Below, one piece after another: positions 6,796 to 59,679 of a stretch of 64,000 bases of DNA; within the stretch, counting starts at the first letter, position 1; the number at the start of each line of letters is the position of its first letter. This DNA is from an uncultured Bacilli bacterium (lineage in GTDB: Bacteria; Bacillota_I; Bacilli_A; RF39; UBA660), in contig CAKPMY010000007.1 of assembly GCA_934168245.1 (NCBI GenBank), positions 1,834-65,833 of the forward strand, written 5' to 3'. The position numbers were made by a program, and so were the translations under genes. The notes under the pieces are model-generated. The model was given only the letters and a program-made list of their open reading frames with translations. It was not told where the DNA came from and made no database searches.

Positions 6796-6805
6796 TTTCT
6801 CTTTT

Positions 6806-41008: not shown

Positions 41009-41009
41009 A

Positions 41010-41699
41010 TTACTCACTACTTTCTTTAAAATTTTTATACCATTCATCTAGTCTATCTTTTGTTTTTTCATAGGTTTCTTTGGCTTTATCCTTGGCATTT
41101 GAAATAATAGGAGTAGTCTTTTCTACTACTTTATCTTTAGCTTTTTCGATTATTTCCATTTCTTTTTGATAAGTATCTTCGCCTACTCTTTCAATATAGG
41201 CGTTTTTGATAGTCTCTTTTAAGGATTTTGCCATTTCTTTTACTTTACTATAGGTTTTTGTAGAGGTATCTTTTATATCTTCTTTATAATTAGGAAAAAC
41301 ACTTTCTATTTTTTCATCTAGTTTTTCATATAGTTCAAGTATTTTCTCTTGTGCCTCAGTACTTAACTCTTTAAAAGTCTTTCCTTTGATTGTGCCATCG
41401 TAAAAAATAAAGTCAGTTAGAGTAATAAATGTTTTCTTTAAAGAGCACTTGGTTTTTTCAGATAAACTTTCCTCTTTTTCAAGAGATTCTACTTCATTTG
41501 TTACTTCAGTTATATACTCGACTACTTCAGCATCTGATACAGATTCATATTTAGTTACTTTTTCTGTTTCTAGAACAATTTCTTTGGTTACTTCTTTTTT
41601 AGAATTATGTTTTTCTTCACTTGTTGTTTGGTTAGTACAAGCAGTTACTAAAAACAGTAAACAAATAGTTAAAAGTATTACTTTTTTCATAATAAACAC
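41010..41699 (-). CDS. Lipoprotein with coiled-coil K/E-rich mature region
   Basis: Signal peptide plus lipobox LVTACTN. Confidence 0.6.
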   Translation of the reverse strand: MFIMKKVILLTICLLFLVTACTNQTTSEEKHNSKKEVTKEIVLETEKVTKYESVSDAEVVEYITEVTNEVESLEKEESLSEKTKCSLKKTFITLTDFIFYDGTIKGKTFKELSTEAQEKILELYEKLDEKIESVFPNYKEDIKDTSTKTYSKVKEMAKSLKETIKNAYIERVGEDTYQKEMEIIEKAKDKVVEKTTPIISNAKDKAKETYEKTKDRLDEWYKNFKESSE

Positions 41700-41831: not shown

Positions 41832-41900
41832 TTATTATGCAGTTATTTGTTTATTTTTATGAAATATAGATTTCACTTTGTCTGCAATATGAAATTTTGT

Positions 41901-43391: not shown

Positions 43392-43405
43392 ATTTTTATC
43401 CTTTG

Positions 43406-44989
43406 CTAAAACTTAAAACTTATATTATCTATTGGAATCGAATACTTTTCATCATAAAACGAAAGTTTATTATCACTATTTTTAAATGTGTTGTTATAGA
43501 CTTTATATTCACGAGAATTATTCCAATGTCTTCCGTCATTTGCAAATATTTCATACTTTTTGGCATCGTCTGGTAAAAATTTATAGTGTAATAAATAAGA
43601 ACAAAATTTGGCCTTTTTATTTATATTCCATGGATAATAATAATGGTCATTTACAAAAGTTTCTTTACCGCTATAGAAAATAAGTGGTATTTTTTGTAAA
43701 CTTGGATTTATTCCAAAAATTCTAGCTCTTGGTCCTCCAAAAAAACGTTGTTTATATGGAACGTTGCTTGTCATTTTATAAGTTCCTTTATCAACATATT
43801 TAAAATCATCTATATTTCCCTCAAATATGTTTTTTGAAGAGTAGACATCAAGCATTAGACTTTTTATAAATGGTGTTTTATTTGATTTTAAATATTCTTC
43901 AAGTGATATATTCTTGTAATTTTCATATATAAATAGTTCATCGGAATCTACAGTTAAGTAGTACTTTCCCGGACCATAGAACTCAAAAATTTGCTGTTTC
44001 CAGCCACACATTTTATAGCAATTATACTTATCTGAAATCTTCCAAAAGGAAATGTTTACTCTGTTCTCATATGTTTTTAAAATCGATGTGGAATTATCTG
44101 TTGAGTTATTATCAACTAAGACAAAGTTTTTTATTCCGATATTAATATAGTGGTTGAGCCATTTTTCTACAAAATTCGAAAAATCATTGTAAAAACAAAC
44201 TAATATTATTTTTCCCGAAAAAGCAACGTTATTTATTTGAATAAGATTTTTGGTATTTAAACCATCGATGAAATTTGAAAAATAATCATCGGAGTACTCT
44301 ATATTATTGAATTCCTTCTTGAACATTTTTATTAACTTTTCTTTTAACACGTCACTTGCATCCAGTTTTTCGATTTCTTGGATTCTTTCTTTTTCTTTTT
44401 CATGCTTAATCTTGTTTAGCTTTTTTATGTGCTTAAAAAGAGGAGCAAAGTTAACATCAATGAATTCTTCAATCTTGCCAGTTTTTATATGCGGAGTCTT
44501 AATATTTAAAATCCTTTTCATGTAGGAAGTAATTGAACCGTGTGAAACTATCATTACTGTGTTATCTGCAAAATTATTTGTATAAATGTCGTTTAAAAAT
44601 TCACACAATCTAAACTCTATATCAAACTTATTTTCTCCATATTCACCAAACCTAACAAAATAATCTCCAGCTATTTGTTTTATCCTTGTTTGATCTAATT
44701 CATCATTATTCTTTTTTCCTGAATATTTCCCATGATTTATTTCATGTAATCTTTTTTCAATAATAACTTCTGTTTTTGGATACTTCTCATGAACATAATG
44801 TGCTGTCTGTACTGTTCTAGGAAATGGTGAAACGTATATTTTGGCAATTTCTTCTGGTAATGATTTTAGTGATTCCACTACGGTATTTATTCCTTTTTCT
44901 GTTAGAGTTGACCAATAAATTTCTCTATCTGAAATCAGTTCCTTTACATTGTCGGTTGCCTCTCCATGTCTCATAAAAATTATATTCAT
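43406..44989 (-). CDS. Fusion protein: N-terminal histidine-phosphatase (phosphoglycerate-mutase-like, RHG motif) domain plus C-terminal GT-A-fold glycosyltransferase domain
   Basis: MNIIFMRHGEATDN...IVSHG (His phosphatase), then VCFYNDFSNFVEKWLNHYINIGIKNFVLVDNNSTDNS...DSDE (glycosyltransferase). GGAGG RBS. ATGA overlap with GT4. Confidence 0.65.
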   Translation of the reverse strand: MNIIFMRHGEATDNVKELISDREIYWSTLTEKGINTVVESLKSLPEEIAKIYVSPFPRTVQTAHYVHEKYPKTEVIIEKRLHEINHGKYSGKKNNDELDQTRIKQIAGDYFVRFGEYGENKFDIEFRLCEFLNDIYTNNFADNTVMIVSHGSITSYMKRILNIKTPHIKTGKIEEFIDVNFAPLFKHIKKLNKIKHEKEKERIQEIEKLDASDVLKEKLIKMFKKEFNNIEYSDDYFSNFIDGLNTKNLIQINNVAFSGKIILVCFYNDFSNFVEKWLNHYINIGIKNFVLVDNNSTDNSTSILKTYENRVNISFWKISDKYNCYKMCGWKQQIFEFYGPGKYYLTVDSDELFIYENYKNISLEEYLKSNKTPFIKSLMLDVYSSKNIFEGNIDDFKYVDKGTYKMTSNVPYKQRFFGGPRARIFGINPSLQKIPLIFYSGKETFVNDHYYYPWNINKKAKFCSYLLHYKFLPDDAKKYEIFANDGRHWNNSREYKVYNNTFKNSDNKLSFYDEKYSIPIDNISFKF

Positions 44990-46080
44990 TTTAATTCCTC
45001 CACAATCTCATTAACTTTATTCTTCCAATTATAATACTTAATAACATATTCTCTATTTTTTTGTGAAATTTTGGTTCTATCACTTTCTATTGCCTTTTTT
45101 ATACCTTCAACAATAGAATCAACATTTGACTCTACTACAAATCCCCTACCGTTATCTAATAATTCCCTGTTTATCTGAGTGTTAGTCGCTACTATTGTTA
45201 GACCACAACTCATTGCCTCTAAGATTGTTCCTTGTAGTCCTTCACCATAGCCTGATGGAGATATAAATATATCTGCTTGTTGGTAGTAGTGTTCTGTATT
45301 TTGAACTCTTCCTGTAAATAAACATTTATTAGACATTGCTTCTAGTCGGTTTCTGTCGGGACCATCGCCTACGATTGTAAGTTTTATATTGTAGATATTT
45401 TGTAGTTTTTCATAGGCTTGTATTATTTTATCAATGTTTTTTCGCTCAATGAGACGTCCTACATATAAAAGATTTATTGTTTTTAATTTTGATTGTTTAT
45501 TTTGTGGAGAAAATCTATTGCAATCAACACCAGTAGATATGACTTTAACTTTATTTTTACAATATTTTTTCCATGATTCTTTTACTTCTTCAGAAATAGC
45601 AATAACGTTATCATATGCTGCTAAAAAACTTCCTTGAAAGTCGTTTTGCTCTCTTGGAATTCCACATAAATATAGTACATTTTTAGAAACATATTCTCTT
45701 GGTATGAATACAGCATCTAAATTATAATAAGAAAAAATGGTGTCATATTTTTCTTGGTGTTGAAAAATATATTCATATAATTTCTGATTATAGTAAATGG
45801 ATTCTATATTCCAACGACATCTGTCCTCACCGGGCTCTATTTCATATATGTAGTCAATTTTCTTATCTTGATTAATTTCTATGATGTGAATTTTATCAGA
45901 ATACTTTTGACAAAACTTTTCAAATTGTGGAGAAGGCTTTAATTTTATACTTGATGGTAAAATCGTAAAAAAATAAATGTCATGACCTAAATTATATAAA
46001 TTAATAGTGTGATCAAAAGAGATCATTTCAGCCCCACCAACAAAATAAGATGCTCTAGGTTGATTAATTATTATTTTCAT
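44986..46080 (-). CDS. Family 4 (GT-B) glycosyltransferase
   Basis: GYGEGLQGTILEAMSCGLTIVAT EX7E motif. AAAGGAGA RBS. Confidence 0.8.
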   Translation of the reverse strand: MKIIINQPRASYFVGGAEMISFDHTINLYNLGHDIYFFTILPSSIKLKPSPQFEKFCQKYSDKIHIIEINQDKKIDYIYEIEPGEDRCRWNIESIYYNQKLYEYIFQHQEKYDTIFSYYNLDAVFIPREYVSKNVLYLCGIPREQNDFQGSFLAAYDNVIAISEEVKESWKKYCKNKVKVISTGVDCNRFSPQNKQSKLKTINLLYVGRLIERKNIDKIIQAYEKLQNIYNIKLTIVGDGPDRNRLEAMSNKCLFTGRVQNTEHYYQQADIFISPSGYGEGLQGTILEAMSCGLTIVATNTQINRELLDNGRGFVVESNVDSIVEGIKKAIESDRTKISQKNREYVIKYYNWKNKVNEIVEELK

Positions 46081-46783
46081 AGTTTCTCCTTTGACTAATG
46101 TATTTTTTTGTTAAAACTTTGGCTTTTTCTAAGTCATCTATATGTAGTTGTTTGCTTTGACAATAAGGCATCCAAATGGTTTGGTACTTTTCTACATCGT
46201 CAAATGGTATATTGTTATTTATCATTTCAACTATTTTTTCTATTTCAAAAATTGCTCCTCGATGTGTTATGTTTATTGACTGTGCTGATTGTTCTAAATC
46301 TCCTATAATGTGTAACATTCCAGTGGCGATACGAGCTGACCATTGTGCATGATTTTCTCCAGGACTTAGAATTATTCCTCTATTTTTATTTTGACCAAAG
46401 CGATGTGTTAAGTCTCCTTGCATTCTACAACTTTCAAAATCATCCCAGCAACTTTGAAGGAAGTTGACTCTTTCTTGATGTTCCATATTAGAAAAATCAA
46501 AAGTTCCTTGAAATAATTCTGTCAATCCAATATCCATAATGCACTCACTCGGAATGCTGTTTTTTAAAAGATATTCGGCTAATATTTCGGCCGTTTCTTG
46601 GCCTCTTTTTTTGGTTGAATGTCTTATTATTACCTTACCATCGCCAATTTGAGGTAAAATTTCTTTACAAACATTTTTGGCGATTTCTATTCCTTTTAAT
46701 GTAAGTCCAGTATCATTTTTACCATCAATATAACTATGGTCATCATAGCTGTGCCTAACGACCAAAAAACTATTTTTTTCCAT
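46064..46783 (-). CDS. Histidine-phosphatase-family protein (PGAM-like); first gene of the glycosylation operon
   Basis: LVVRHSYDDHS...HRGAIF motifs. The track start at 46804 is TTG. The ATG at 46783 (MEKNSF) has an AAAGGTGA RBS. Confidence 0.55.
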   Translation of the reverse strand: MEKNSFLVVRHSYDDHSYIDGKNDTGLTLKGIEIAKNVCKEILPQIGDGKVIIRHSTKKRGQETAEILAEYLLKNSIPSECIMDIGLTELFQGTFDFSNMEHQERVNFLQSCWDDFESCRMQGDLTHRFGQNKNRGIILSPGENHAQWSARIATGMLHIIGDLEQSAQSINITHRGAIFEIEKIVEMINNNIPFDDVEKYQTIWMPYCQSKQLHIDDLEKAKVLTKKYISQRRNYENNN

Positions 46784-46878
46784 TATTTCACCTTTAAAAT
46801 ACAATTATGTAAATTGTACTGTATTTCCTATCTTATATATTTATTGATTAAGTATATTATCGTTATAATCTATTTATT

Positions 46879-46907
46879 ATGATAACAATTGTATTTTTAA
46901 TTGTCAA
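46879..46907 (-). promoter_or_regulatory. Putative sigma-A promoter for the glycosylation operon (TTGACA-17-TATCAT)
   Basis: Minus-strand TTGACA (plus tgtcaa at 46902-07), a 17-nt spacer, then TATCAT (46879-84), about 90 nt upstream of the ATG. Confidence 0.4.
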
Positions 46908-46930
46908 TTTTATAATTATCTCGTTTTAAA

Positions 46931-49117
46931 TTAATTAAGCTTTTTTAGTGTCTTTGGTGACTGTATCGCCTCTTTAAAAGGCTTAGTTATTTCCTTGTTA
47001 TATAATACGAGTTGTTCATGTAGGGCTCTTGTTGAAGCTACGTATAACAAATGCATATCTACATCATTATTGGCATCATATACGTTGTTCGAAGCATCAT
47101 TAACAATTGCACAATCAAATTCTAATCCTTTAGATGAGGCTACTGATAAAACAAATACACCAGTTGTATATTGTGTGTCTTTATTAGAAATGTACTTTGA
47201 TTCTACCTGAGCATTTTTTAATTCTTCTTGTACACGTTGTGCCTCATTTTCATCTTTGCAAATAACGGCTATCGTCTGATATCCGACGTCAAGCCATTCA
47301 TTGATTTTATCAACTTTTGCATTACTATTTTCAGAAACATCTTCATATCCAACCTCGGTTCCATGTCTTATAACTGGTTCTGCTTGATTAAGGCCTAAGG
47401 CAGTTAAAATATTGTTGGCTGTTTCAGTTATTTCCATAGTTGTACGATAGCTTTTACTTAGTTCTAATATTTTACATTCACCATCAAATACAATTTCATT
47501 AAGTTCATTCCAAGATTTGATGCCTCTATACGAATAAATAGATTGAGCTAGGTCTCCATAAATATTAAATTTAGCTTGCTCAAAAATTTTCCTTAACACA
47601 AAGAAAGTGAATATACTATAATCTTGAGCCTCATCTATTACTATATTGCTATAAGGTAAACGTTTATTTGCAAGTCTATAATTTAAGTACAATAGTGCCG
47701 GAATATCTTCAAAAAATATATGTTTCTTTTTTAAGGCTTTTAATGTATCTTTTTGTAATGTATTAACTTCATCTGGAGTTAAATCTGTTTTGGACTCGGT
47801 CAAACCAGCAATGAATGATACATATAAAGATAAACAAGATTTATTAATGCCTTTAAAATATTTATCTAAAGACTTTTCACCTTGCTCTTTTATGAATTTT
47901 CTTAAGGTTTCACTCTTATCTATATATTCTTTTCTTTTTGGATCGCCTTTTGGCAATGACATATAAACTTTTCTATATTCTTCATTAAGTGATTCATATA
48001 TTTCCTCCTTTTTTTCACGGAATAGTGCCTTATAATATTTATATGTGGAATTAAAATCAAAATGTCTTCCTCCCTCGCCAAGTAATCTTTGCCTTATCAT
48101 CTCTTTAGGAAAGACGACTTTACCATCTATTTTAAAATCATCTTCTACTAGGGCATTGCCTTCTAGACATTTTAGTATAAATTCATCTAGCAAATTATGA
48201 TATTTAAGGCTTCCTTTAAAGACACTTATATGTTTTTGCATTTCCTGCTTTGCACTATTTTGAGATAATGGTTGGTTTTCTAATATTAAATCCGTACCAA
48301 CATATTCATTCATTAATTCTATTAAAGTTTTTTGTTCTACTGGAGTTGTTTCAAGTTCGGGAAGCACTGAGGAAACATAGTTTAAAAAATAGTCATTTGG
48401 ACCTATAACTAAAAATTGATTTGGCCTAGTTTTTTCTCCCATTGTATATATCAAATATGCTATTCTATGTAAAGCTACAGATGTCTTTCCACTACCGGCC
48501 ACTCCTTGAACAATAACATCACTGTTTTCAGATCTAATAATGGCATTTTGTTCTTTTTGGATGGAAGCAATAATAGTCTTCATTCTACTATCAGCATTGA
48601 TATTTAAATATGGTAGTAGTAATTCATCATTGGTTACTAAGTTTGTATCCACCGCATTTAACAACTTTGCATTTTTTATTAATATTTGTCTTTTTAAAAG
48701 TAAGTCGCCAGTTTTAGTACCAGTTGGTGACATGTATGAAACTGGGCCTACTTCACTATCATAATACAATCCACAAATTGGACTTCTCCAATCATAAACA
48801 ACTAAAGAGTTTTCATGTGGTATGGCAGTTCTTCCAATGTATATTGGGATGGTCTTCTGTGTATTAGTACCTTGATAATCTATTCTACCAAAATATGGGC
48901 TTTGTTTAGCTCTTTCTAATCTAACCACTCTTTCGCCAATGTTGGCTAATTGTGAGTTTAAATTAAGATGTGTTCCTCTCAATCTGTCCTCAAATGATAG
49001 ACTAGTGGCTTCCTTTTTTACAAAACTTTCGTTGGCTAAATTCTTTTTTATCTCTGCTTCAATAACTTCTTCTACATATTCCAATTGCTCTGTTTCAACT
49101 TTTAAAATTTCATTCAT
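46931..49117 (-). CDS. HelD-like (helicase IV / UvrD-family) DNA helicase, paralogue 1
   Basis: Walker A QGVAGSGKTSVALHRIAYL nearly identical to the HelD motif. UvrD-like core. AAGGAAGG RBS. Confidence 0.8.
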   Translation of the reverse strand: MNEILKVETEQLEYVEEVIEAEIKKNLANESFVKKEATSLSFEDRLRGTHLNLNSQLANIGERVVRLERAKQSPYFGRIDYQGTNTQKTIPIYIGRTAIPHENSLVVYDWRSPICGLYYDSEVGPVSYMSPTGTKTGDLLLKRQILIKNAKLLNAVDTNLVTNDELLLPYLNINADSRMKTIIASIQKEQNAIIRSENSDVIVQGVAGSGKTSVALHRIAYLIYTMGEKTRPNQFLVIGPNDYFLNYVSSVLPELETTPVEQKTLIELMNEYVGTDLILENQPLSQNSAKQEMQKHISVFKGSLKYHNLLDEFILKCLEGNALVEDDFKIDGKVVFPKEMIRQRLLGEGGRHFDFNSTYKYYKALFREKKEEIYESLNEEYRKVYMSLPKGDPKRKEYIDKSETLRKFIKEQGEKSLDKYFKGINKSCLSLYVSFIAGLTESKTDLTPDEVNTLQKDTLKALKKKHIFFEDIPALLYLNYRLANKRLPYSNIVIDEAQDYSIFTFFVLRKIFEQAKFNIYGDLAQSIYSYRGIKSWNELNEIVFDGECKILELSKSYRTTMEITETANNILTALGLNQAEPVIRHGTEVGYEDVSENSNAKVDKINEWLDVGYQTIAVICKDENEAQRVQEELKNAQVESKYISNKDTQYTTGVFVLSVASSKGLEFDCAIVNDASNNVYDANNDVDMHLLYVASTRALHEQLVLYNKEITKPFKEAIQSPKTLKKLN

Positions 49118-49169
49118 TATAATCTACCTTCCTTAATTTCTTTAATATAATTTTTCATGAATATGATAA

Positions 49170-50429
49170 CTACTTTTTCATTTTTACTAATCTTGGATTT
49201 GGATACATAAATCTAGTCATTACTTGGTGTTCTGGATATCCAATTAATAATTTTATTGAATCATCACTAAAGTTTTTTGTTTTAAAGGCATCAGGTAAAA
49301 CTAATTTGTCCATCAGACCTTTTTTTACGAGTGAGACCTTAATATTTCTATAATTTATTTGTTCTTCACTGGCTCGAAAAAACATTATTGTTTCTAATCC
49401 TAGTTGTTCGGTTGGTTGTTTCAGATCTAAATCATATTCAAAAAGAACAAAATCAGACTTTTCTAACTGATGAAATAATTTTGATGTAACTAATGTTTCA
49501 TATCCATTTTCCAAAAAGAACCTTGGATTGATACTGGATAGTCTAATTTTTTTTCCACCGATGTAAATATATCTCTCATATGAATCATCTAACCATTTAT
49601 TCTCATGAACAATTACTGAAGCTAACTCCTGTTGTCTTTTCAAGTCTCTATTATTCTGCTTTAAATCTCTTAACTCTTCCATCCATATTGCTGTTTGGGC
49701 TTGTAATTTGGTTCTTACTTCATTTATACATTGCTCATTCTCTCTATTGCAAGGTTTAATGGTGTTTATTAAAATTTGTATCTTATCCTTGTCATATTTA
49801 TTTTCTAAATATTTGTAAGCTATTTTTAAAACAAGGGCTGCATAACCTTTTAAAATAGGAATTTCATGTACTACTTGGCATAATTCCAAAATTTCATCTA
49901 TTTTGGCTAAACTCAATCTATTTACTGAGTCTTCATATATAATTTTTCTAAATTGGTATAAATATTGTTCAATATCATTGTCAATAACAACACAATCCTC
50001 ATAAATTTTTTTTAATGTTATATTCTCAACACTTCCATATTTATATCCAACAAATGGGGTTGCATCTACTTGGTAAGTTTCGCCGGTCGAAGAATCCACC
50101 AAAGCAACAACATGAATTGTAGTTATATTATCAGGATCAAATATGCGTTTTCTCACTAATGCACACCTTTGGTTTTGGCCTATGTTTAGGTGTTTAGCAT
50201 ACTCAACAAAACAATGAGCAGCAGTATAGCAATTACCATTCATTTTTAGTATATCAGTATCAGGATTGGGAAAACCATTTGGATATACACTTTGTCTTAC
50301 AATATCACAAAGTACCTTTAGTTTCTTTTCGAATGAAAGATTATTAAAATTTATATCAAAATAACATTCACCAAAAACATTGTCGTTGGTAATAGGTTTT
50401 AGTTCCTCTAGTTCTGGTAAAAAATCCAT
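49170..50429 (-). CDS. Cytoplasmic protein with N-terminal transglutaminase-like (papain-fold Cys-His-Asp) domain and C-terminal coiled-coil
   Basis: GNCYTAAHCFVEYAKHLNI...RCALVRK (Cys motif), IHVVALVD (His), YQVDATP (Asp) in the order and spacing of Transglut_core. The ATG at 50429 (MDFLPELEEL) has a GGGGGAG RBS. Confidence 0.5.
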   Translation of the reverse strand: MDFLPELEELKPITNDNVFGECYFDINFNNLSFEKKLKVLCDIVRQSVYPNGFPNPDTDILKMNGNCYTAAHCFVEYAKHLNIGQNQRCALVRKRIFDPDNITTIHVVALVDSSTGETYQVDATPFVGYKYGSVENITLKKIYEDCVVIDNDIEQYLYQFRKIIYEDSVNRLSLAKIDEILELCQVVHEIPILKGYAALVLKIAYKYLENKYDKDKIQILINTIKPCNRENEQCINEVRTKLQAQTAIWMEELRDLKQNNRDLKRQQELASVIVHENKWLDDSYERYIYIGGKKIRLSSINPRFFLENGYETLVTSKLFHQLEKSDFVLFEYDLDLKQPTEQLGLETIMFFRASEEQINYRNIKVSLVKKGLMDKLVLPDAFKTKNFSDDSIKLLIGYPEHQVMTRFMYPNPRLVKMKK

Positions 50430-50686
50430 TTGTTTCTCCCCCATTAATTTCTTTATTTTTAAGTTAAATTCATATTTTTAGATTTATCAATTTTAATGAT
50501 AATCTGGGCATTATCTCTGAAAAATTGTATTTTATTATATCAATTTTTTATAATTAGTCAAGTTTTAATAAATCAGCTTTAACAATATATGTTTATCTTA
50601 TGATAGTGTCTTAAGTGTTATCTTGCGAAAATATCTCATTGTTATGTAATACTAAATATTTTTAAAGTTCTCAAAATTTTTTAAAA

Positions 50687-50711
50687 GAAAAAACTAGGAG
50701 TTTTCCTAGTT
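50687..50711 (-). terminator. Rho-independent terminator at the end of the acidic membrane-protein gene
   Basis: 9-bp stem aaactagga / tcctagttt with a 4-nt loop, T-run on the minus strand. Confidence 0.6.
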
Positions 50712-50713
50712 TA

Positions 50714-51799
50714 CTAATCTAAATGTTTTTGTAAGTCTTTTAAAGTCATTATAAAGTCATTTGTCTTTTTAATTTCTTCATCTAGTTTTTCATAGTTAGC
50801 AGTATTTTCTAACTCTAGATCATTTTGACTCTTAGTTTTTTCAATACCATAAATTGGTGAAATGATAGGGCTTGGTTTATACTTAAATGATTCTTGATAA
50901 ACTGGTCTTTTTTCTCTTTCAACCTTAACTGTATCAAAATCATCTAAAACCATTTGTTCTACTACTGGAGTCTCTTCGATTTTTTCAATGATTGGTTCAA
51001 TTACTGGTTCAGCATATTCAACTACAGGTTCTTCTTCAATGGCTGCTACTTGTTTCATTTTTGCTTCTAAGTCAGCAAGACTGATTGGTTCATTGCCTTC
51101 ATCTTCATATTGAGTTAGTTCGTTGTTAGCATACATTTCTTTAGACTTTTTAATTAATTCATCTAAACTAATGATAGCATCACGTTCTTGAGCCTCTTCG
51201 TAACTAGTTAAATCAATATTTTTAGTTTCTTCTTCGGCTTTTTCTAACTCTTCAGTTAATCTTCTTAATTCTTCTTGAGCTTCTTCATGAGTTGGTTCAA
51301 TGCTTGTATAAGTAATTTCCTCTTCAGCAGGTTCTACTTCCATAGTATCTAGTACTAAATCTTCAACATTTTCAGAAATTTCCTCAATAGTATTTTCAAC
51401 AGGAAGTTGCTCTTCTTTATTTTCAATGATAACTGGCTCTATTTTTTCTACTTCTTTTACTTCTTCTTTAATTTCAATTGGTTCTACGACAGGTTCTTCT
51501 TTTACTACAGTCTCTACTGTAGGAGTTTCAATGTTTTCTACTAAAACGGGTTCAACATAAACAGCAGATTCTTCTTCAGTAAGTTGAACAGGTTCAGGTA
51601 CTTCGATTTTTTCAAGTTCTAGAGTTGAATTTATATCATCAACTAATCTATTTAATTCCTTAGTATTTTGTTTTTGTTTTCTTTTGTAGTAACTTTTGTC
51701 GATTAAGTAAATTATAAAGTATAAAAAACAAGCGATGCCAGCAACAATATAAACAATTATTATTTCTTGTGAAGTTAATAGTTTAATAAAATCGTTCAT
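50714..51799 (-). CDS. Membrane-anchored acidic protein with EPV/EEPV repeats (N-terminal TM, Glu-rich cytoplasmic or extracytoplasmic domain)
   Basis: TM IIVYIVAGIACFLYFIIYLI, then highly acidic repeats. AAGAGGTG RBS. Confidence 0.5.
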   Translation of the reverse strand: MNDFIKLLTSQEIIIVYIVAGIACFLYFIIYLIDKSYYKRKQKQNTKELNRLVDDINSTLELEKIEVPEPVQLTEEESAVYVEPVLVENIETPTVETVVKEEPVVEPIEIKEEVKEVEKIEPVIIENKEEQLPVENTIEEISENVEDLVLDTMEVEPAEEEITYTSIEPTHEEAQEELRRLTEELEKAEEETKNIDLTSYEEAQERDAIISLDELIKKSKEMYANNELTQYEDEGNEPISLADLEAKMKQVAAIEEEPVVEYAEPVIEPIIEKIEETPVVEQMVLDDFDTVKVEREKRPVYQESFKYKPSPIISPIYGIEKTKSQNDLELENTANYEKLDEEIKKTNDFIMTLKDLQKHLD

Positions 51800-51988
51800 T
51801 CATGTACACCTCTTATTTAAAGAATAGCACATGTAATTTTTAAAGAAAAGTAAAGATTAGTTTTTTATAAAAATTTTACAATGGCTTTTACGTTTTTCTA
51901 CGTTTGTTCGATTTACAAGATTTACACTTTTAGAAGAGACGTTTTTTTGTTATGTAATTTTATTTTAAAGTGTTTCATATAACTTACT

Positions 51989-53290
51989 ATGAAAGAAAAA
52001 TTTATTAAATCAACATTAGGATTATTAGTGGGAGGATTTTTTACTAAAGTACTAGGAATGGTAATTAAAATAGTAATGAGTAGACTTATTGGGACTGATG
52101 GTTTAGGACTTTATATGTTAATTTTACCGACCTTTTCTCTTTTTATCGGAATAAGTCAGTTGGGAATGCCGGTGGCTCTTGCTAAATTGATTGCGGAAGA
52201 TACTAAGAATAATAAAAGATTATTCTTTTCAGTGCTGCCGGTAATACTTTTAGTTAATGTTATTTTGATTGTTATTATTTTACTTTTTGCTCCTATTCTT
52301 GCTAATAAGTTACTTAATAATAATTTGACTTATTATGGTATTTTAGCGATTGCTTTGGTAATTCCTTTTACTAGTATTTCTAGTATTTGTAGAAGTTATT
52401 TTTTTGGAAAAGAGAGAATGGTTCCACATGTTGTTTCTAATTTACTGGAAGATGTTGTTAGACTTAGTTTGATGATTGTAGGTATTCCTTTTGTTATAGA
52501 TAAGGGTATTCAGTATGCAGTTTGTTATATTATTGCTTCTAATGTTATTAGTGAAGGAGCATCTATTTTAGTTTTATTTTTATTTTTGCCGAAAGGAACA
52601 TTTATTAAAAGAAGTGATTTAAGGCCTAATAAAGGCTATATACAGGAATGTTTATCGATTGGTATACCAAATACTACTGGAAGATTAATTGGAAGTGTTG
52701 GGTACTTTTTAGAGCCAATAATTTTAAGTTTAGTACTACTTAGTGTAGGATATAGTAATGGGTATATTGCTAGAGAGTATGGAATATTATCAGGATATGT
52801 TATGCCATTATTACTACTCCCATCTTTCTTTACGTTGGCTATTTCACAAGCACTTTTACCAGTTGTTTCGAAAGAGTTTTCAAAAGGAAGAAGTAAAAGT
52901 GTAAAAAAGAAGATAAGACTTGCTATTACGTTTTCAATGGCGATTGGAATTCCAGCAACTATTCTTTTTATCTTATTCCCGGAGGTTTTTTTAAGAATAA
53001 TTTATCATACATCGGAAGGAGTTACTTATATGAGAATACTTGCTCCTATATGTTTATTACAATATATACAAAGTCCATTAGCATCGGCACTTGATGCGAT
53101 GGGAAAAAGCAAAGATGCTATGGTCGCGACAACTCTTGGAATGATTACTAGGACGGGATTATTATTTGGGCTTTCATATTTAAAAATTGGAATGTATGGG
53201 TTAATTATTGCGATTAGTATTAATGTTTTAGTTGTTACAGTATATGACTTATGGAAAGTACATAGTCATTTAAAAGAAAAAGATGCCTAA
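51989..53290 (+). CDS. MOP-superfamily polysaccharide/oligosaccharidyl-lipid flippase (Wzx/SpoVB/MurJ-like)
   Basis: About 12 TM, 433 aa. N-terminus resembles SpoVB/Wzx family members (FTKVLGMVIKIVMSRLIG). Confidence 0.75.
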   Translation: MKEKFIKSTLGLLVGGFFTKVLGMVIKIVMSRLIGTDGLGLYMLILPTFSLFIGISQLGMPVALAKLIAEDTKNNKRLFFSVLPVILLVNVILIVIILLFAPILANKLLNNNLTYYGILAIALVIPFTSISSICRSYFFGKERMVPHVVSNLLEDVVRLSLMIVGIPFVIDKGIQYAVCYIIASNVISEGASILVLFLFLPKGTFIKRSDLRPNKGYIQECLSIGIPNTTGRLIGSVGYFLEPIILSLVLLSVGYSNGYIAREYGILSGYVMPLLLLPSFFTLAISQALLPVVSKEFSKGRSKSVKKKIRLAITFSMAIGIPATILFILFPEVFLRIIYHTSEGVTYMRILAPICLLQYIQSPLASALDAMGKSKDAMVATTLGMITRTGLLFGLSYLKIGMYGLIIAISINVLVVTVYDLWKVHSHLKEKDA

Positions 53291-53294
53291 GCAT

Positions 53295-55325
53295 CTAGTT
53301 ATAAATATATAATTCATGTTGACATCTAGTACAAGCAACATATAATAAGTTTCTTTCGTTCTTACGATAAGAATTGTTACGATCGTTATAGATAATAACA
53401 CTATCAAACTCTAAACCTTTAGCAATATAGGCAGGGATGACAATTAAATTTTTCTGGAACTTTTTCGTATTAGCCTCAATTAAAGAAATGTTTAGAGAGT
53501 CTTTTAAAAGTTCATATAACTCTTCGGCTTCTTTATAATCTTTTGTTATAACAGCAGTACTTTTATATTCTTCTTGAAGAGTCGTTATATCTTTTAAAAG
53601 AGATGTTTTTAAGTCTTCGATATTTCTTCTAAAGATTACTGGTTTATTATTATCTTTACGAATAGCATTGACATGTTTTAATTTAAGGATCTTATTAGTA
53701 TACTCAATTATTTCAGGGGATGAACGATATGTTTTTAATAGTTCTAAGTACTTGGTATCACCCGTAAATAACGGACTTAGATCTGCTAAGGAGTTATAAC
53801 TGTAGTATGGATTTATATTTTGATTAATGTCACCTAGAATTGTGAAGTCGGCTTTTCTAAATATTTTGCTTATTATTACATATTGAAGCATATTGTAATC
53901 TTGAGCTTCATCAATTACTACTTGTTTTATATTAGCCTCGTATGGAAAACCTTCCAAGGTACCTTTAATGTAGGAAAAGATTAAAGCATCTTCATAGTTA
54001 ATGATATTTTTCTTGATAAAAGAATTTACTTCTGTTTCTGATAAAGGCATTTTACAAAATGGACTAGACCAAAAGGTTGCATATATTTTTTTATAATCTT
54101 TTTCAAAGTTAGATGATTCTTTTAGAAGTTTACCAAATGTTTTGACTTTTTTATTACTACCTTTATAAAATTGTTGAGAGAGTTTTTTAGACATTTCTTC
54201 TAGCCGTTCAAATAATGGAAAACGATCATATTTATAGGTTAACATTTCGTTTAATTCTTCTTTTAAGACTACATTAAATTCGTTTTCAATAATATCTTCT
54301 GTGAATTTACATTTTAAAAGATAATCTGTTAAATAAGCATCAATATCGGCAATTATTTCATCGCTTTGCTTGTATTTTACTAGGTCTGGATTTTTTTCAC
54401 TATAGGTATAATATCTAGAAACAAAGTCGGTGAAAGTTTCGACATCTTTATACTCAGTTATAAAATATGATAAGTAGTCATTAAAGGTTGTCTGTAAGGT
54501 ATTATTTTCTCCAAGAGATGGTAAAACGTCAGAGATGTATTCGGTAAAGACATTGTTTGGAGAAAATATTAAGATATTATTACTGGTTAAGTTTTTTAGT
54601 CGATATAGTAAAAAGGCAATTCGATGAAGAGCGACTGTTGTTTTGCCGGAACCTGCTATTCCTTGAACTATTAGGTTGTTATCTTCTAGGTTACGTATGA
54701 CTTTGTTTTGTTCTTGTTGAATGGTATTGACAACATTTTTCATTCTTTCACTGGACTCGGTTGCTAGAACTTCTTGTAAGACTTCATCATCAATATTTAG
54801 AGAGTTGTCAAAGACTCCTACTAATTTATTGTTTTCTATTTTATATTGGCGCTTACGTTTTAGTTCGCCTTCGAAAATGCCACCTGGGGCTTTGTAAGAG
54901 CAAGGGCCTATTTCGTAGTCATAGAAAAGACTGCAAACGGGACTACGCCAGTCGTATAAAATGTTATTTAAGTTGTCGTCTTTTAAGTAAGTTAGAGAGA
55001 TGTAAATATTATGAACTTTTCCCTCGTCATCTTTAAAAATTATGGAAGCAAAGTAAGGTTTATTTTTTATTTGACATAACTTTTTAAAATAGACTTGTTT
55101 TTGTAGGGCGCGGTCTGCTTCACCGGCTGTTGCAGCCATTACTTGTTGCATCTCGGCTTCATCAAAACTGGTAGAGTTTTCCCACATCATTTTTTTGAAC
55201 TCTTTTAAGTTTTCTTCATCATTATAGACATCTTCTCCTAATGATGATAAAGTGTCACCTAATAACTTTTGAACTTTCTTTAAAATTTTCTGTTCTGTTT
55301 TAAATTCTTGTTCGCTAATTGCCAT
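53295..55325 (-). CDS. HelD-like (helicase IV / UvrD-family) DNA helicase, paralogue 2
   Basis: QGIAGSGKTTVALHRIAFL Walker A. Same architecture as paralogue 1. AAGGAGGT RBS. Confidence 0.8.
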   Translation of the reverse strand: MAISEQEFKTEQKILKKVQKLLGDTLSSLGEDVYNDEENLKEFKKMMWENSTSFDEAEMQQVMAATAGEADRALQKQVYFKKLCQIKNKPYFASIIFKDDEGKVHNIYISLTYLKDDNLNNILYDWRSPVCSLFYDYEIGPCSYKAPGGIFEGELKRKRQYKIENNKLVGVFDNSLNIDDEVLQEVLATESSERMKNVVNTIQQEQNKVIRNLEDNNLIVQGIAGSGKTTVALHRIAFLLYRLKNLTSNNILIFSPNNVFTEYISDVLPSLGENNTLQTTFNDYLSYFITEYKDVETFTDFVSRYYTYSEKNPDLVKYKQSDEIIADIDAYLTDYLLKCKFTEDIIENEFNVVLKEELNEMLTYKYDRFPLFERLEEMSKKLSQQFYKGSNKKVKTFGKLLKESSNFEKDYKKIYATFWSSPFCKMPLSETEVNSFIKKNIINYEDALIFSYIKGTLEGFPYEANIKQVVIDEAQDYNMLQYVIISKIFRKADFTILGDINQNINPYYSYNSLADLSPLFTGDTKYLELLKTYRSSPEIIEYTNKILKLKHVNAIRKDNNKPVIFRRNIEDLKTSLLKDITTLQEEYKSTAVITKDYKEAEELYELLKDSLNISLIEANTKKFQKNLIVIPAYIAKGLEFDSVIIYNDRNNSYRKNERNLLYVACTRCQHELYIYN

Positions 55326-55463
55326 ATATACCTCCTTAATTTATTCTTTAAAAACCAAAATACTACATTTATTCATGTAGTTATAATTATCATATAGTAT
55401 TTTTTCGCTAAACGTCTGTTTCAATATATCATAAGTTTTAGAATTAGACAAGAGGATTTTTAA

Positions 55464-55491
55464 AAGAAAAAAAATATTCCGAGTGGAATAC
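55464..55491 (-). terminator. Rho-independent terminator after paralogue P1
   Basis: tattcc-gagt-ggaata hairpin followed on the minus strand by an 8-9 nt T-run. Confidence 0.5.
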
Positions 55492-55507
55492 TTTTAGTTA
55501 TCTTATT

Positions 55508-56101
55508 TTATTTAGAAAAAACATGGAAAGTGCCTTTTAGTTTATCGTTTTTAGTATAGGCTTTTTCGGTTTCTTTTGTTTTTTCATTTTCTGCAAAATA
55601 GTCAATAATATCATCTAGGAAGACCATTTTCATATCTGATAAACTACTACATACTTTAATATCAGCAGTTTTTGGACATGCTTGTTGTGGTCCTTGTTCT
55701 GGTTGATAAACTACCATTTCATGATTAGGACATCTCTTATAGAATCTTACTGGATGTGGCATTCTATATTTTTGGTATCTTACGCTGATATATCTTTCTT
55801 TTGTTGATGGTAAAGTGGCTTCTTTTATAGGACATTGTACTGCCTCAACATAAGTTAAAGGTTTAGTTATGATGTTCATGGCTGGTTCTATATGACCAAG
55901 CATATATGTAGTTGTCTCAGCAGAAATTACTTCTTCGCCGTTTTCGGTAGTTTCAATTTCTTTTTTTACAACATCAATTTGGACTGGACTATTTTCTTTT
56001 GGCCATTTGATATTTTCTAGATCTTCGACGTTTGTAGTAAATGTCGCACAACTTCTTGGAAAATCTTTGTTACAACGATAATAAATATCTAATTTTTTCA
56101 T
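55508..56101 (-). CDS. Paralogue P1 of an unrecognised ~160-200 aa family (N-terminal KLD(I/V)YY(R/H)C motif)
   Basis: The ATG at 56101 (MKKLDIYYRC) has an AAAAGGAGAAAC RBS; the track start is an upstream TTG. Shares PxQIDVVKxEIE and KTADxKV motifs with P2. Confidence 0.6.
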   Translation of the reverse strand: MKKLDIYYRCNKDFPRSCATFTTNVEDLENIKWPKENSPVQIDVVKKEIETTENGEEVISAETTTYMLGHIEPAMNIITKPLTYVEAVQCPIKEATLPSTKERYISVRYQKYRMPHPVRFYKRCPNHEMVVYQPEQGPQQACPKTADIKVCSSLSDMKMVFLDDIIDYFAENEKTKETEKAYTKNDKLKGTFHVFSK

Positions 56102-56149
56102 AATATTGTTTCTCCTTTTATACAATTATTTATAAGTGGTTGTTTTACT

Positions 56150-56749
56150 TTACTTGTTTTGATTGTTAGCACTTGAGTGGCTTTTATATTTTGCATACTT
56201 TGAATATGTTTTACTTGGAGCATCTTTAGTACTTTGTTCACCTAAGTAGTCAATTACATCACTAATAAAGGCTTTTCTCATTGCTAGAGGTATACTAAAT
56301 ACTTTTACATCTGCTGTCTTAGCATATATTTGCTTTTTACCATTTGGTAATTCAAATACGGCTACTGCTGGATAGCAATAGTCTTTATAAAGTACTGGTG
56401 TTGGTGAAAGCAAATGGTCTTTAAAGACTTTATTTTTTTCGACTTTAGTATTTGATAACATTTTTGTTCTATATGGTGTTATGACAAATCTACCCTCGTC
56501 TTCTTTTACTTCTTTTAATACTTTAGCAGTTTGCTCAGTTGTACCAATCGTGTACTTAGTTGTTGATGTTTTAATTACTTCATTGCCATTCTCATCATTT
56601 TCAATTTCTGATTTGACAATATCAATTTGCATTGGAATACGGTTTACTGGTACATTTATATTTTCAACCGACGTAACATTTTCAACTTTAAACTCTCCAT
56701 TATCTTGATTATTAGGTTTACAATGATAATAAACATCTAACTTTCTCAC
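56150..56749 (-). CDS. Paralogue P2 of the same family
   Basis: GTG start preceded by GAGGGGGG RBS. MRKLDVYYHC...PMQIDIVKSEIE...KTADVKVFS. Confidence 0.6.
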   Translation of the reverse strand: MRKLDVYYHCKPNNQDNGEFKVENVTSVENINVPVNRIPMQIDIVKSEIENDENGNEVIKTSTTKYTIGTTEQTAKVLKEVKEDEGRFVITPYRTKMLSNTKVEKNKVFKDHLLSPTPVLYKDYCYPAVAVFELPNGKKQIYAKTADVKVFSIPLAMRKAFISDVIDYLGEQSTKDAPSKTYSKYAKYKSHSSANNQNK

Positions 56750-56912
56750 AATTATATTCCCCCCTCAATAGTGCACATATTATAACATGTTTTCTGATTT
56801 TTTGCAAGTTTTATCTGCTTGAGCGATGCTTTTTGGAATGCCTTTGGCAAGGAGCGTTTTAGTTTTTTTTAGAATACTAGTTAATTATTTTTCTTGCTCA
56901 CAACCGGCTACG

Positions 56913-56941
56913 ATAAAAAAGAAAAGTTTAATTAAAACTTC
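56913..56941 (-). terminator. AT-rich hairpin terminator immediately after P3
   Basis: aagttt-aatta-aaactt palindrome followed on the minus strand by ttcttttttat. Confidence 0.4.
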
Positions 56942-56944
56942 TCT

Positions 56945-57448
56945 TTAGTAGAAACTACTTTTTTGGTAGACTTTAGCATTGGCTACTCTTTCAGCAATAC
57001 TTTCGTGTTCCTGTTCTTTTTGTTCAAAATAAGTTCTTAAATAAAAGAAGAAACCGTCTCTTAGACTCTCTGGTGTAGGAAATACTTTTACATCAGGAGT
57101 TTTTGGTCTTGCGTATCTTACTCCTGATGGGGTTGTATATATAACCATGGTATGATCTTGGCAGCTTCTATGGAAGGCATACGGATCACCTACTTTATGT
57201 TTGTAGACAGAGGAGAACACTTCATTAGAATCTCGCTCTTCGCCTACCGTATAAATAACTTTATTTCTAAAGAAATTTGTTTTTAATTCAGCATCTAAGT
57301 ACTCAATTTCATGAACTATCTCAATAACGTAAGGTGTTTCATCCTGTGGAAAACAAATCTGATCTTCCTTACTTATGTTTCCTACCTGCTTAGAAAACTC
57401 ATTTGGTTTTTCTGGGTCACAATAATATATTACATCTAATCTTTCCAT
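56945..57448 (-). CDS. Paralogue P3 of the same family
   Basis: MERLDVIYYC...ETPYVIEIV...KTPDVKVFPTPE. AAGGAGA RBS. Confidence 0.6.
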   Translation of the reverse strand: MERLDVIYYCDPEKPNEFSKQVGNISKEDQICFPQDETPYVIEIVHEIEYLDAELKTNFFRNKVIYTVGEERDSNEVFSSVYKHKVGDPYAFHRSCQDHTMVIYTTPSGVRYARPKTPDVKVFPTPESLRDGFFFYLRTYFEQKEQEHESIAERVANAKVYQKSSFY

Positions 57449-57593
57449 ATTTTTATCTCCTTAATACTTTATTATTTGTTTTCCTTTTTATCCTTTTTAC
57501 TAAAGTGTTTTTTAGAAAAATTAATATAGTGTCTTGGATTAATATTACTAAAAAATTAATAATATTTAAGTATGTGTAGTTAAGTCAGATTTA

Positions 57594-58082
57594 TTATTTT
57601 TGATAAGTTTTTGGTTCTTCTTGTTTTACGTTTTCACTTGCAAAAAATAGTAATTCAAAGTTTAGTAAACCTTCTTTTAAGTCCTCTGGTGTTTTAAAAA
57701 CTCTTATTCTATCTGTTAATAGTTCTATATATCTTCTTTTCTTCTTTGGAGTCTTATAAACGGCAAATAAGGTATCATGATTGCCAGGTGTAACATAACG
57801 ATTTACTATTGGTAAGTCTCTTTCCATTCTTGTTTTTGAAGTTGCTGTTTGAATTATTTTTCTTGATGTTAAGACTTCACCTACCATGTAAGTTATTTTT
57901 ACCGGTATTTGTTTTTCTTCTAGGTTGGCATCTAGGTATGTTACAGGCTGATATATATCAATTAAGTATGGAGTCTCTTTTGGATAAGAAGTCTTAGCAA
58001 TGGAGTCAACGTTAAAGGCACGACTAGTTATTTGAGTTGGATCTTCACTATTACAATGATAATGTATTTCTAATTTTCTCAT
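57594..58082 (-). CDS. Paralogue P4 of the same family
   Basis: MRKLEIHYHC...ETPYLIDIY...IRVFKTPEDL. Starts 12 nt after the pmm/pgm stop. Confidence 0.6.
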   Translation of the reverse strand: MRKLEIHYHCNSEDPTQITSRAFNVDSIAKTSYPKETPYLIDIYQPVTYLDANLEEKQIPVKITYMVGEVLTSRKIIQTATSKTRMERDLPIVNRYVTPGNHDTLFAVYKTPKKKRRYIELLTDRIRVFKTPEDLKEGLLNFELLFFASENVKQEEPKTYQK

Positions 58083-58094
58083 AATACTCTTTTA

Positions 58095-59468: not shown

Positions 59469-59679
59469 TAAATCTTAACCTCCTATTAAAAGTATAACAT
59501 ATTAATATTAGAATAAGGAATAAAAATAGATTTTTTAGGTGAAAAGATAGAAATTATTTCAAATGAGGCTGCTCTTTTTTGGAATATTCATGTACTTAAT
59601 TGTGGCTTTATTTTAATTTAACAAAAAAAATGACCTTAAACTTGAAATAGGTTGGTTTAAAGATCATTTTCTTTTTTAA

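Follow-up and report, generated by a model that had tools for sequence, protein, structure and literature searches.

Why does a bacterium carry two genes for HelD-like proteins within 8.4 kb of each other? The question is raised by a 64,000-nucleotide stretch of the genome of an uncultured Bacilli bacterium of the RF39 lineage (contig CAKPMY010000007.1 of assembly GCA_934168245.1), hereafter the window. HelD is an SF1-helicase-like ATPase that reaches with an N-terminal coiled-coil arm into the secondary channel of RNA polymerase (RNAP) and with a clamp arm into the primary channel; it releases nucleic acids and recycles stalled polymerase. The two genes, named P1 and P2 here, are on the same strand, with 4.2 kb between them:

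46931..49117, minus strand: P1, helD paralogue; intact open reading frame (ORF) of 728 amino acids (aa), class I HelD by family and predicted fold, cassette-borne
53295..55325, minus strand: P2, helD paralogue; intact ORF of 676 aa, class I HelD by family and predicted fold, core copy

The original prediction, drawn from the DNA letters, described two HelD-like Walker A proteins of 676-728 aa, and this description is borne out by two intact ORFs, whose Walker A strings, read from the translations, are VQGVAGSGKTSVALHRIAYL in P1 and VQGIAGSGKTTVALHRIAFL in P2. It explained the pair by a local duplication of helD followed by subfunctionalisation, each copy recruiting its own partner. We favour a different account, which we regard as probable: P1 and P2 are two ancient class I HelD paralogues, P2 being the core copy and P1 part of an exchanged six-gene cassette, and their proximity is coincidental.

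Family and fold of P1 and P2

Profile searches placed both proteins with HelD. The NCBIfam model HelD_BACSU (NF041464, cutoff 419 bits) matched P2 with 487.2 bits from profile position 1 onwards, and P1 with 417.5 bits over profile positions 85-775; for P1, the next-best NCBIfam model was HelR_2, with 157 bits. The class II models of NCBIfam gave both proteins 110-138 bits (HelD_MYCSM) and 125-157 bits (HelR models). The top phmmer match in PDB was B. subtilis HelD (6WVK chain H) in both cases, with E 3e-97 for P2 and E 6e-78 for P1. We built AlphaFold2 models on the family alignments, with a mean predicted local distance difference test (pLDDT) of 87.9 and a predicted template-modelling score (pTM) of 0.83 for P1, and a pLDDT of 80.0 and a pTM of 0.75 for P2. 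Foldseek returned 6wvk_H as the top match of both models (P1: E 1.6e-43, template-modelling score (TM) 0.68; P2: E 6e-39, TM 0.63), in alignments spanning 758-781 columns, followed at second rank by chains of M. smegmatis HelD (E 1e-18 to 1e-30).

Published HelD structures have a secondary-channel arm, a Trp cage, a split domain 1A and a continuous domain 2A, and show neither the 1B nor the 2B domain that SF1 helicases possess (PMC7749167). The check for a secondary-channel arm, suggested along with the original prediction, gave a positive answer for both predicted models, which start with an antiparallel helical hairpin (helices 2-38 and 49-72 in P1, 5-49 and 56-85 in P2) with an acidic tip. 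The Trp-cage motif YDWRSP is found in both (W110 in P1, W126 in P2), without the extra residue of the class III motif DWRX[A/S]P (for the class definitions, see PMC7749167 and PMC10719064). The Walker B motif DEAQD is D495-E496-A-Q498-D499 in P1 and D472-E473-A-Q475-D476 in P2, and motif VI contains T696-R697 and T666-R667, respectively. DWRSP, the GSGKT of Walker A, DEAQD, and the TR of motif VI are invariant columns in the alignments of both the P1 family and the P2 family. Finally, a helical insertion between VLPxL and Walker B splits domain 1A in both predicted models, and 2A is undivided. Family membership and predicted fold show P1 and P2 both to be class I HelD proteins, and we infer that both bind and recycle the host RNAP. 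With B. subtilis HelD (YvgS; 6WVK, 6ZCA, 6ZFB; PMC7749167) they have in common the four-part plan, the motifs, the acidic hairpin tip, and the best matches; they differ from it in being smaller than its 774 aa, in an identity of 28-31%, and, for P1, in falling just under the NCBIfam cutoff.

Orthology of either copy to PcrA, UvrD, or Rep, named beforehand as the outcome that would speak against a HelD-like identity, is ruled out by model scores and fold. The PcrA, UvrD, and Rep models gave 31-57 bits against cutoffs of 911-1168, on short core segments only and with no arm regions, and UvrD/PcrA structures appeared in Foldseek at about 1e-14 (P1) and 1e-9 (P2), with a TM of about 0.3-0.45. P1 and P2 share with these helicases, and with the Gabija protein GajB, the RecA-like 1A/2A motor core and the helicase motifs, whereas their full-length fold follows HelD. 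The original prediction also mentioned a defence-like role, and one could imagine P1, or both proteins, as the helicase of a Gabija-like or new anti-phage system: the GajB model of PADLOC matches both, and the cassette described below is accessory and exchanged. However, the best GajB match reaches 69.7 bits, on partial and generic UvrD-like stretches, compared with 417-487 bits for the HelD models; no GajA-like nuclease lies beside P1 or P2, and no neighbour or other cassette protein matches any PADLOC model. We thus rejected the Gabija-type helicase, found the defence-like role unsupported, and consider an anti-phage function very improbable.

The spacing of the landmarks along the two proteins differs:

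N-terminus to PYF motif: P1 74 aa, P2 90 aa, B. subtilis HelD 99 aa
Walker A lysine: P1 K211, P2 K228, B. subtilis HelD K239
VLPxL to Walker B, the span holding the clamp arm: P1 244 aa, P2 205 aa, B. subtilis HelD 267 aa
Walker B to C-terminus: P1 233 aa, P2 204 aa, B. subtilis HelD 228 aa

These spacings imply that the secondary-channel arm of P1 is shorter than that of P2 (by some 16-17 residues ahead of the PYF motif), and that its clamp-arm span and C-terminal part are longer. The hairpin tips also differ. The tip of P2 is F54-D55-E56-A57-E58, in which D55, E56, and E58 align with D56, D57, and E60 of B. subtilis HelD; by this alignment, P2 retains all three acidic tip residues. The tip of P1 is F42-E43-D44 followed by R45-L46-R47, which makes it partly basic where B. 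subtilis HelD has D-D-A-H-E, and it is without the third acidic residue. In B. subtilis, the triad D56/D57/E60 is required for the protection of RNAP against rifampicin (PMC12802891).

We found no third HelD-like gene in the window. A RecD2-type helicase of 729 aa (37535-39724, minus strand), a backbone gene 7 kb from P1 whose orthologues have OB_YrrC, HHH_RecD2, and AAA_30 domains, was considered as a third paralogue and rejected, as it is of the SF1B type and unrelated to HelD.

Core copy, cassette copy, and their separate histories

P1 and P2 are 32-33% identical to each other, and are 28% (P1) and 31% (P2) identical to B. subtilis HelD, whose sequence was compared over residues 6-765 as rebuilt from HMMER alignments. 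Neighbour joining separates the P1 family, the P2 family, and B. subtilis HelD into three deep lineages, and members of the two families are 28-34% identical. The P2 family is uniform: its best 120 clusters, out of more than 120 at this level, are all at least 75% identical, nearly all of 676-677 aa, with a mean identity of 78%. The P1 family diverges fast, with identities to P1 of 87, 72, 69, and down to 46%, and a within-family mean of 53%. Identities and tree together show P1 and P2 to be anciently diverged paralogues in separate deep clades, P1 belonging to the separate and faster-evolving one.

The two genes also have different settings, as had been claimed: P1 is part of a cassette, and P2 is part of a conserved backbone. 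The cassette spans about 8.5 kb, from 50560 down to 41901, and encodes an orphan protein with a transglutaminase-like motif (TGL), P1, a histidine phosphatase, a family 4 glycosyltransferase (GT4), a fusion of a phosphatase and a glycosyltransferase (GT), and a family 2 glycosyltransferase (GT2). The genes around P1 are, in order of transcription:

49170..50444, minus strand: TGL, orphan protein of 424 aa, first gene of the cassette, directly upstream of P1; C72/H110/D127 motif
46064..46804, minus strand: protein of the histidine-phosphatase superfamily, first gene of a four-gene block (Pfam His_Phos_1, E 5.7e-5)
44986..46080, minus strand: GT4 glycosyltransferase, 364 aa (Pfam Glycos_transf_1, E 1.4e-32)
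43406..44989, minus strand: fusion of a histidine phosphatase and a GT2_4-like domain, 527 aa (His_Phos_1, E 7.9e-20; Glyco_tranf_2_4, E 1.6e-14)
41901..43391, minus strand: GT2 glycosyltransferase, 496 aa, last gene of the cassette (Pfam Glycos_transf_2, E 9e-18)

We compared the window with related loci in metagenome-assembled genomes, numbered L001, L002, and so on. The backbone is seen in L036-L038, where a phosphomannomutase (PMM) gene is followed directly by helD (P2), a few variable genes, SpoVB on the opposite strand, an acidic protein, a MiaB-like protein, and RecD2. The P2 orthologues of these loci are 76-79% identical to P2, and there is no array of paralogues (see below), TGL, P1, or glycosyltransferase gene at the P2 locus. 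Gene order and identities show P2 to be a vertically inherited core copy, the conserved HelD of the lineage, beside the phosphomannomutase gene.

DNA identity, computed in 500-nt bins, behaves differently in the cassette and around it:

Window compared with L032: backbone flanks 82-91% and 81-93%, cassette 52-81%
Window compared with L001: backbone flanks 66-83% and 73-84%, cassette 80-90%

The backbone of the window is closest to L032, and its cassette is closest to L001 and L002. In the comparison with L032, identity breaks upstream within the 500-nt bin containing the terminator-like and promoter-like sites that precede TGL. Taken with the relatives that have no cassette, the reciprocal discordance shows that the inheritance of P1 follows the cassette rather than the backbone; the proposed check for horizontal acquisition of one copy thus points to P1, which travels with an exchanged cassette. 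On these comparisons, the cassette entered the backbone as an insertion and has passed between lineages as a whole. Outer flanks that differ from one locus to the next are seen in L033, L034, L039, L040, and L056:

L033: rRNA methyltransferase and leucyl-tRNA synthetase (LeuRS)
L034: SpoIIGA-SigE and GerA operon
L039: rpsR; NUDIX gene, then rplI-dnaB
L040: rpoB-rpoC and sortase
L056: cation-efflux gene and AAA protein

The order in L040 (positions 1-12220) is rpoB, rpoC, histidine phosphatase, GT4, fusion, GT2, and, last, HelD. The position of this cassette right after rpoB-rpoC is a single case, suggestive of a role related to RNAP. Composition does not set P1 apart: its GC content is 31.1% and that of the window 30.8%; in the GT block it is a little lower (28.2%).

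The idea of a local duplication has in its favour that two same-strand helD-like genes lie 4.2 kb apart. It is contradicted by the low identity (about 32%), by the separate clades, and by the fact that both copies are about as distant from B. subtilis HelD as from each other. Synteny points the same way, since some relatives have P2 alone at this locus (L036-L038), P1 and its cassette are at unrelated loci elsewhere, and the divergence of the cassette is discordant with that of its flanks. We regard the duplication as refuted, and the scenario of subfunctionalisation with partners recruited by each copy as hardly credible: the 8.4-kb closeness of P1 and P2 is a by-product of the site at which the cassette landed.

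Genomes with several HelD isoforms have been described in B. cereus, C. perfringens, C. botulinum, C. beijerinckii, and L. plantarum (PMC8655204; PMC7749167). The three clostridial species have 2-3 copies, all of them expressed (PMC8655204), and isoforms of one genome have a conserved motor and differ in the lengths of the secondary-channel and clamp arms (PMC8655204, PMC7749167). The original prediction took HelD to be a single-copy gene in Bacillus, which is correct for B. subtilis but not for B. cereus and B. anthracis, for each of which a review lists two HelD loci (Table 1 of PMC10719064). The window resembles the multi-isoform organisms (PMC8655204) in having two class I HelD of differing size, with differences mainly in the two arms. 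It differs from them in that the genes are 4.2 kb apart, one being a core gene and the other cassette-borne with conserved partners.

The window lineage can be described as the backbone plus two added blocks, the cassette being one, between the genes of the acidic protein and of a lipoprotein-like protein, and an array of four paralogues between PMM and P2 the other. The corresponding features are:

55508..58082, minus strand: four-paralogue array, ORFs of 162-205 aa, between the PMM gene and P2
50714-51799, minus strand: acidic backbone protein of 361 aa, with one N-terminal membrane helix (judged by eye) and a Glu/Val/Pro-rich acidic body
41010..41699: small lipoprotein-like gene preceding MiaB, the other boundary gene of the cassette

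P2 was correctly placed downstream of the array by the original prediction; the gap between them measures 182 nt. The array proteins are 20-36% identical among themselves and have no Pfam, NCBIfam, or PADLOC family. Searches with tblastn gave array-like ORFs at two sites in L001 and L002, at one site in L032, where the ORF adjoins a CYTH-like gene, and nowhere in L036-L038. The array is a lineage-specific, second, and independent variable insertion in the same backbone; as a partner of P2 it is not conserved, being absent from L036-L038. The acidic protein, between SpoVB and MiaB, diverges fast (39-81% identity in relatives), and its sole family match is a weak one to the membrane-protein family TIGR04561.

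Partners and transcription of the cassette copy

The protein encoded directly upstream of P1 had been called a transglutaminase-like cytoplasmic protein. A motif compatible with this name is present in TGL and its closer homologues, where G-[ND]-C-[YH]-T, T-x-H, and Y-Q-x-D, spaced by 38 and 17 residues, provide C72, H110, and D127 in a transglutaminase-like arrangement; by eye, there is no membrane segment. A significant family match is what the name lacks. TGL has no Pfam, NCBIfam, or PADLOC match at E<=0.01, and at E<=1 Pfam gives PilP (E 0.015), Transglut_prok (E 0.15), and nothing else. Its family comprises 65 clusters, and the profile search of 1.84 billion proteins gathered 128 representatives; neither this search, nor Pfam at E<=1, nor NCBIfam, nor a comparison of the family profile with PDB (best E 0.42) linked it to a known family. 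In distant members, the putative catalytic Cys72 is replaced by Ser and His110 by Arg or Gln, and Asp127 is invariant. A new Cys is seen in the family right after this Asp (VDCS), which could reflect a shifted or a lost active site.

Apart from the HelD match of P1, the profile searches provided no specific family assignment for the six cassette proteins. The mechanical ORF of the histidine phosphatase begins at a TTG, homologues align from residue 7-8 onwards, and the ATG at 46783, which has a ribosome-binding site ahead of it, is probably the true start, giving a protein of about 239 aa. NCBIfam and PDB matches of the GT4 are generic only. The best PDB match of the GT2 is chondroitin synthase (E 2.5e-15), and its N-terminal region of some 200 aa has no family match. 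The fusion protein is 61-88% identical across cassettes. It is also found, at 63-66% identity, in L043, L045, L048, L050, and other loci that have no other block genes, TGL, or HelD, and is thus spread more widely than the block and independently of it. No signal peptide or membrane segment was seen by eye in the translations of the six proteins, and judged in this way the cassette is all-cytosolic.

TGL is directly upstream of a P1-type HelD in L001, L002, L004, L032, L034, and L056. Among 29 genome loci with a full-length TGL homologue, a P1-type HelD directly downstream was found only in the closest (L001, L002, and L004), and the pairing is limited to closer relatives, with a TGL identity of at least 52%. 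In L005, the four-gene block comes right after TGL, and HelD is missing; in L003, TGL comes after the block, at the end of a contig; and none of the 24 more distant loci has a HelD next to TGL. L022 was considered as a distant TGL-HelD pair and rejected as a coincidence, as rpsA and bipA lie between the genes. Seen from P1, six of seven homologues (51-72% identity) have the four-gene block next to them (L032, L033, L034, L039, L040, and L056), the exception being L035. The order takes three forms, with HelD upstream of the block in ten loci including the window, divergent from it in L039, and downstream of it in L040. Seen from the block, 13 loci came out of a single metagenome scan that used the fusion protein as query; the full block is present in four, of which two have HelD (on the same contigs as L033 and L039) and two, L042 and L046, do not. 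Hence, the partner singled out by the original prediction, the 424-aa TGL, is conserved in closer relatives only, and the GT/phosphatase block is the more consistent one. Starting from HelD, the association between P1 and the block is strong; starting from the block, it is partial. That it has withstood rearrangement points to a functional tie, in a sample biased by the loci found through P1.

More distant P1-type HelD genes, in L035, L054, and L055, are co-directional with clusters of genes for cytosolic sugar and nucleotide enzymes, often with gaps of less than 30 nt. These clusters contain several NUDIX proteins, Ham1/ITPase, PHP, APH-type kinases, radical SAM proteins, and UDP-glucose dehydrogenase, and also GT1/GT2, HAD phosphatases, NADAR-DHH, a RelA/SpoT-like protein, and an ABC-F protein. 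Judging from these three loci, neighbours devoted to sugar and nucleotide house-cleaning may be a wider theme of the P1 clade.

We searched the region for transcription signals. Promoter sites were called by consensus matches only, and the region does not exceed shuffled sequence in their number (110 vs 95 +/- 9). The main candidates are:

50691..50712, minus strand: terminator-like hairpin ending the acidic-protein gene; 9-bp stem and T-run, kept in L001, L002, and L032
50534..50561, minus strand: TGL promoter-like site of the sigma-A type, TTGACT-16-TGaTATAAT; 11/12 consensus, extended -10
46879..46907, minus strand: second promoter-like site of the sigma-A type, TTGACA-17-TATCAT with TG; 11/12 consensus, between P1 and the block
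55423..55451, minus strand: P2 promoter-like site with TG; weak (9/12), in the 182-nt gap after the array
53281..53296, minus strand: terminator-like hairpin at the P2 stop codon, common to the convergent SpoVB-like gene

The TGL promoter recurs in L001, L002, L032, and L056 as in the window, and L034 has a variant of it, even where the gene upstream is another one. By its sequence and conservation it is the probable start of a TGL-P1 unit and the upstream edge of the cassette, and the hairpin at 50691..50712 marks the boundary between backbone and cassette. The gap between TGL and P1, which the original prediction gave as 53 nt, is of 52 nt (49118..49169) between co-oriented, adjacent genes; it holds the ribosome-binding site AAGGAAGG and no terminator-like hairpin. 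TGL-HelD gaps are of 17-89 nt in all loci. The likely operon that had been proposed is thus supported by a promoter conserved in six loci and by short, terminator-free gaps, and P1 is very probably co-transcribed with the 424-aa TGL. The search gave no terminator-like site in the stretch from P1 to the GT/phosphatase block; the likely units are TGL-P1, possibly reading into the block, and the block, which would be separately boosted from the second promoter-like site. The two cassette promoter regions (46884-46914 and 50520-50550) have in common a segment of 31 nt at 77% identity, including AAATACAATT, and the segment just 3' of the TGL promoter -10 is also kept in L001, L002, L056, and L034. 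The shared segment could be an operator or leader, or an AT-rich chance match.

The 182-nt gap between the array and P2 holds a small hairpin with a T-run followed by the promoter-like site, and from these signals P2 appears to be monocistronic. A perfect sigma-70 consensus (TTGACA-16-TATAAT, 12/12) lies antisense inside the 3' end of P2 (53319-53346, plus strand). It coincides with the motif VI codons (LLYVACTRCQ), and in L001, L002, L036, L037, and L038 one of its hexamers departs from the consensus; we consider this candidate antisense promoter probably a coding coincidence. A convergent dual promoter of the kind that governs helD and pps in B. subtilis (PMC12802891; sites 45-100 bp apart, within 300 bp upstream) was not found above chance at TGL, P1, the block, or P2: opposite-strand hexamer pairs are at chance level (8-9/12), and the best pairs lie on the sense promoters in back-to-back orientation, instead of converging on them. 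A 19-bp palindrome like that of the actinobacterial rifamycin-associated element (RAE) was not detectable upstream of TGL, P1, or the block, and Rfam gave no credible riboswitch or leader RNA in 40000-60000 (a match to mir-488, E 0.026, is spurious).

Several points weigh against the picture of a class I HelD exchanged with a cassette of its own. At the ends of the cassette there are no mobility genes, flanking repeats, or att-like sites, short AT-rich chance matches aside. P1 scores 1.5 bits below the NCBIfam HelD_BACSU cutoff. The linkage is not obligatory: L005, L046, and L042 have the block without HelD, several loci have the phosphatase-GT fusion alone, and the P1 homologues at 48-51% identity (L035, L054, and L055) are without this block. 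Most loci of the P1 side were found through P1 homologues, which biases the count. The promoter-like site at 46879..46907 could uncouple the transcription of P1 from that of the block. Finally, all relatives are metagenome-assembled, which makes mis-binning or assembly chimeras conceivable; the identical gene order on many independent contigs argues against them.

What the cassette copy may do

Why related bacteria have one, two, or more expressed HelD isoforms is a question that the literature explicitly leaves open (PMC8655204). In the literature searched, we found no report assigning a HelD isoform to a horizontally exchanged cassette, and no reported link of a class I HelD clade with a GT/histidine-phosphatase block and an orphan Cys/His/Asp protein. 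As a genome with several HelD, this one is ordinary. The link between P1 and the block, which tolerates rearrangement, is the part that we did not find reported, and it is a handle on the coexistence of isoforms. We infer that the role of P1 is tied to whatever the GT/phosphatase block makes or modifies. From the link we also derive a proposal that is a long shot at present, in which the P1-type HelD is a dedicated subunit for the rescue or protection of RNAP in a mobile, cytosolic glycosylation/phosphatase cassette. The proposal rests on the conservation of the neighbourhood in three arrangements and on the co-exchange of the cassette. The cassette would modify a small molecule that targets RNAP, or make a sugar- or nucleotide-derived compound that stalls it, and the cassette HelD, whose secondary-channel arm is shorter, with a partly basic tip, and whose clamp arm is longer, would clear the poisoned polymerase.

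A related scenario comes from known resistance systems. P1 could dislodge an RNAP inhibitor or a stalled complex while the glycosyltransferases and phosphatases modify the compound, by analogy with the actinobacterial RAE regulon (HelR with Rgt, Rph, Arr, and Rox), its nearest functional counterpart, and with B. subtilis helD and pps. Class II HelR and B. subtilis HelD protect RNAP from rifampicin and are co-regulated with drug-modifying enzymes (PMC10719064; PMC12802891), and glycosyltransferases are among the genes behind rifampicin-responsive dual promoters (PMC12802891). Like resistance modules, the cassette is exchanged horizontally, and one copy sits directly after rpoB-rpoC (L040). However, the GT4 and GT2 have only generic, glycan-type matches. 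The rifamycin glycosyltransferase Rgt is presumably of a different family than the cassette enzymes, and histidine phosphatases are not known to have a role in rifamycin inactivation, which also counts against this scenario. Moreover, neither a convergent dual promoter nor an RAE-like palindrome was found upstream of TGL, P1, or the block, of the three acidic tip residues on which B. subtilis HelD relies P1 is without the third, and the cassette encodes no transporter or regulator. Target protection combined with drug modification is thus improbable in our view. The cassette shares with the HelR/RAE regulon and helD/pps (PMC10719064, PMC12802891) the linkage of a HelD-family protein to small-molecule-modifying transferases and an accessory, inducible character. 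It differs from the former in that P1 is a class I protein without the PCh loop, whose partners are GT4, GT2, and histidine phosphatases and not Rgt, Rph, Arr, or Rox, and from both in the absence of an RAE or convergent dual promoter at the cassette. Because the cassette enzymes are of other families and the regulatory signature is absent, the resemblance is one of analogy, not of membership.

The cassette could also be a cytosolic glycan or glycoconjugate locus in which HelD hitch-hikes, P1 being a second general-purpose isoform. The decoration of the spore surface from the mother-cell cytoplasm, for which no flippase would be needed, is one example of what such a locus might do. The GT4 and GT2 resemble transferases of the polysaccharide and teichuronic-acid type. 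The hosts are spore-formers: SpoVB is encoded in the window, and SpoIIGA/SigE, GerA, SpoIVA, and GerQ are near the cassettes of L034, L040, and L039. The block has its own promoter-like site and is found without HelD in the three loci mentioned above. Pure hitch-hiking, on the other hand, poorly predicts that HelD and the block stay adjacent through three gene orders and at least six chromosomal neighbourhoods, and both cassette promoters look like those of sigma-A and not of a sporulation sigma factor. We hold a passenger HelD to be possible but doubtful. Sequence data alone cannot separate this explanation from target protection.

The locus separates a slow-evolving core copy from a fast-evolving one that moves with defined partners, and this makes the 'specialisation' of HelD isoforms testable. 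The question that it raises is whether the cassette HelD acts on RNAP under a condition made or sensed by the GT/phosphatase genes. If the link is not functional, the window adds another multi-HelD genome, in which the closeness of the copies is coincidental. A functional link would carry the HelD/HelR theme, in which target protection goes together with small-molecule chemistry, into gut Firmicutes, and would provide a role for the orphan TGL family and for the uncharacterised four-gene block. Should the P1-type HelD indeed turn out to be an RNAP rescue subunit of the cassette, it would be the class I counterpart of the actinobacterial HelR resistance regulon and would give the first functional rationale for the multiplicity of HelD isoforms in Firmicutes.

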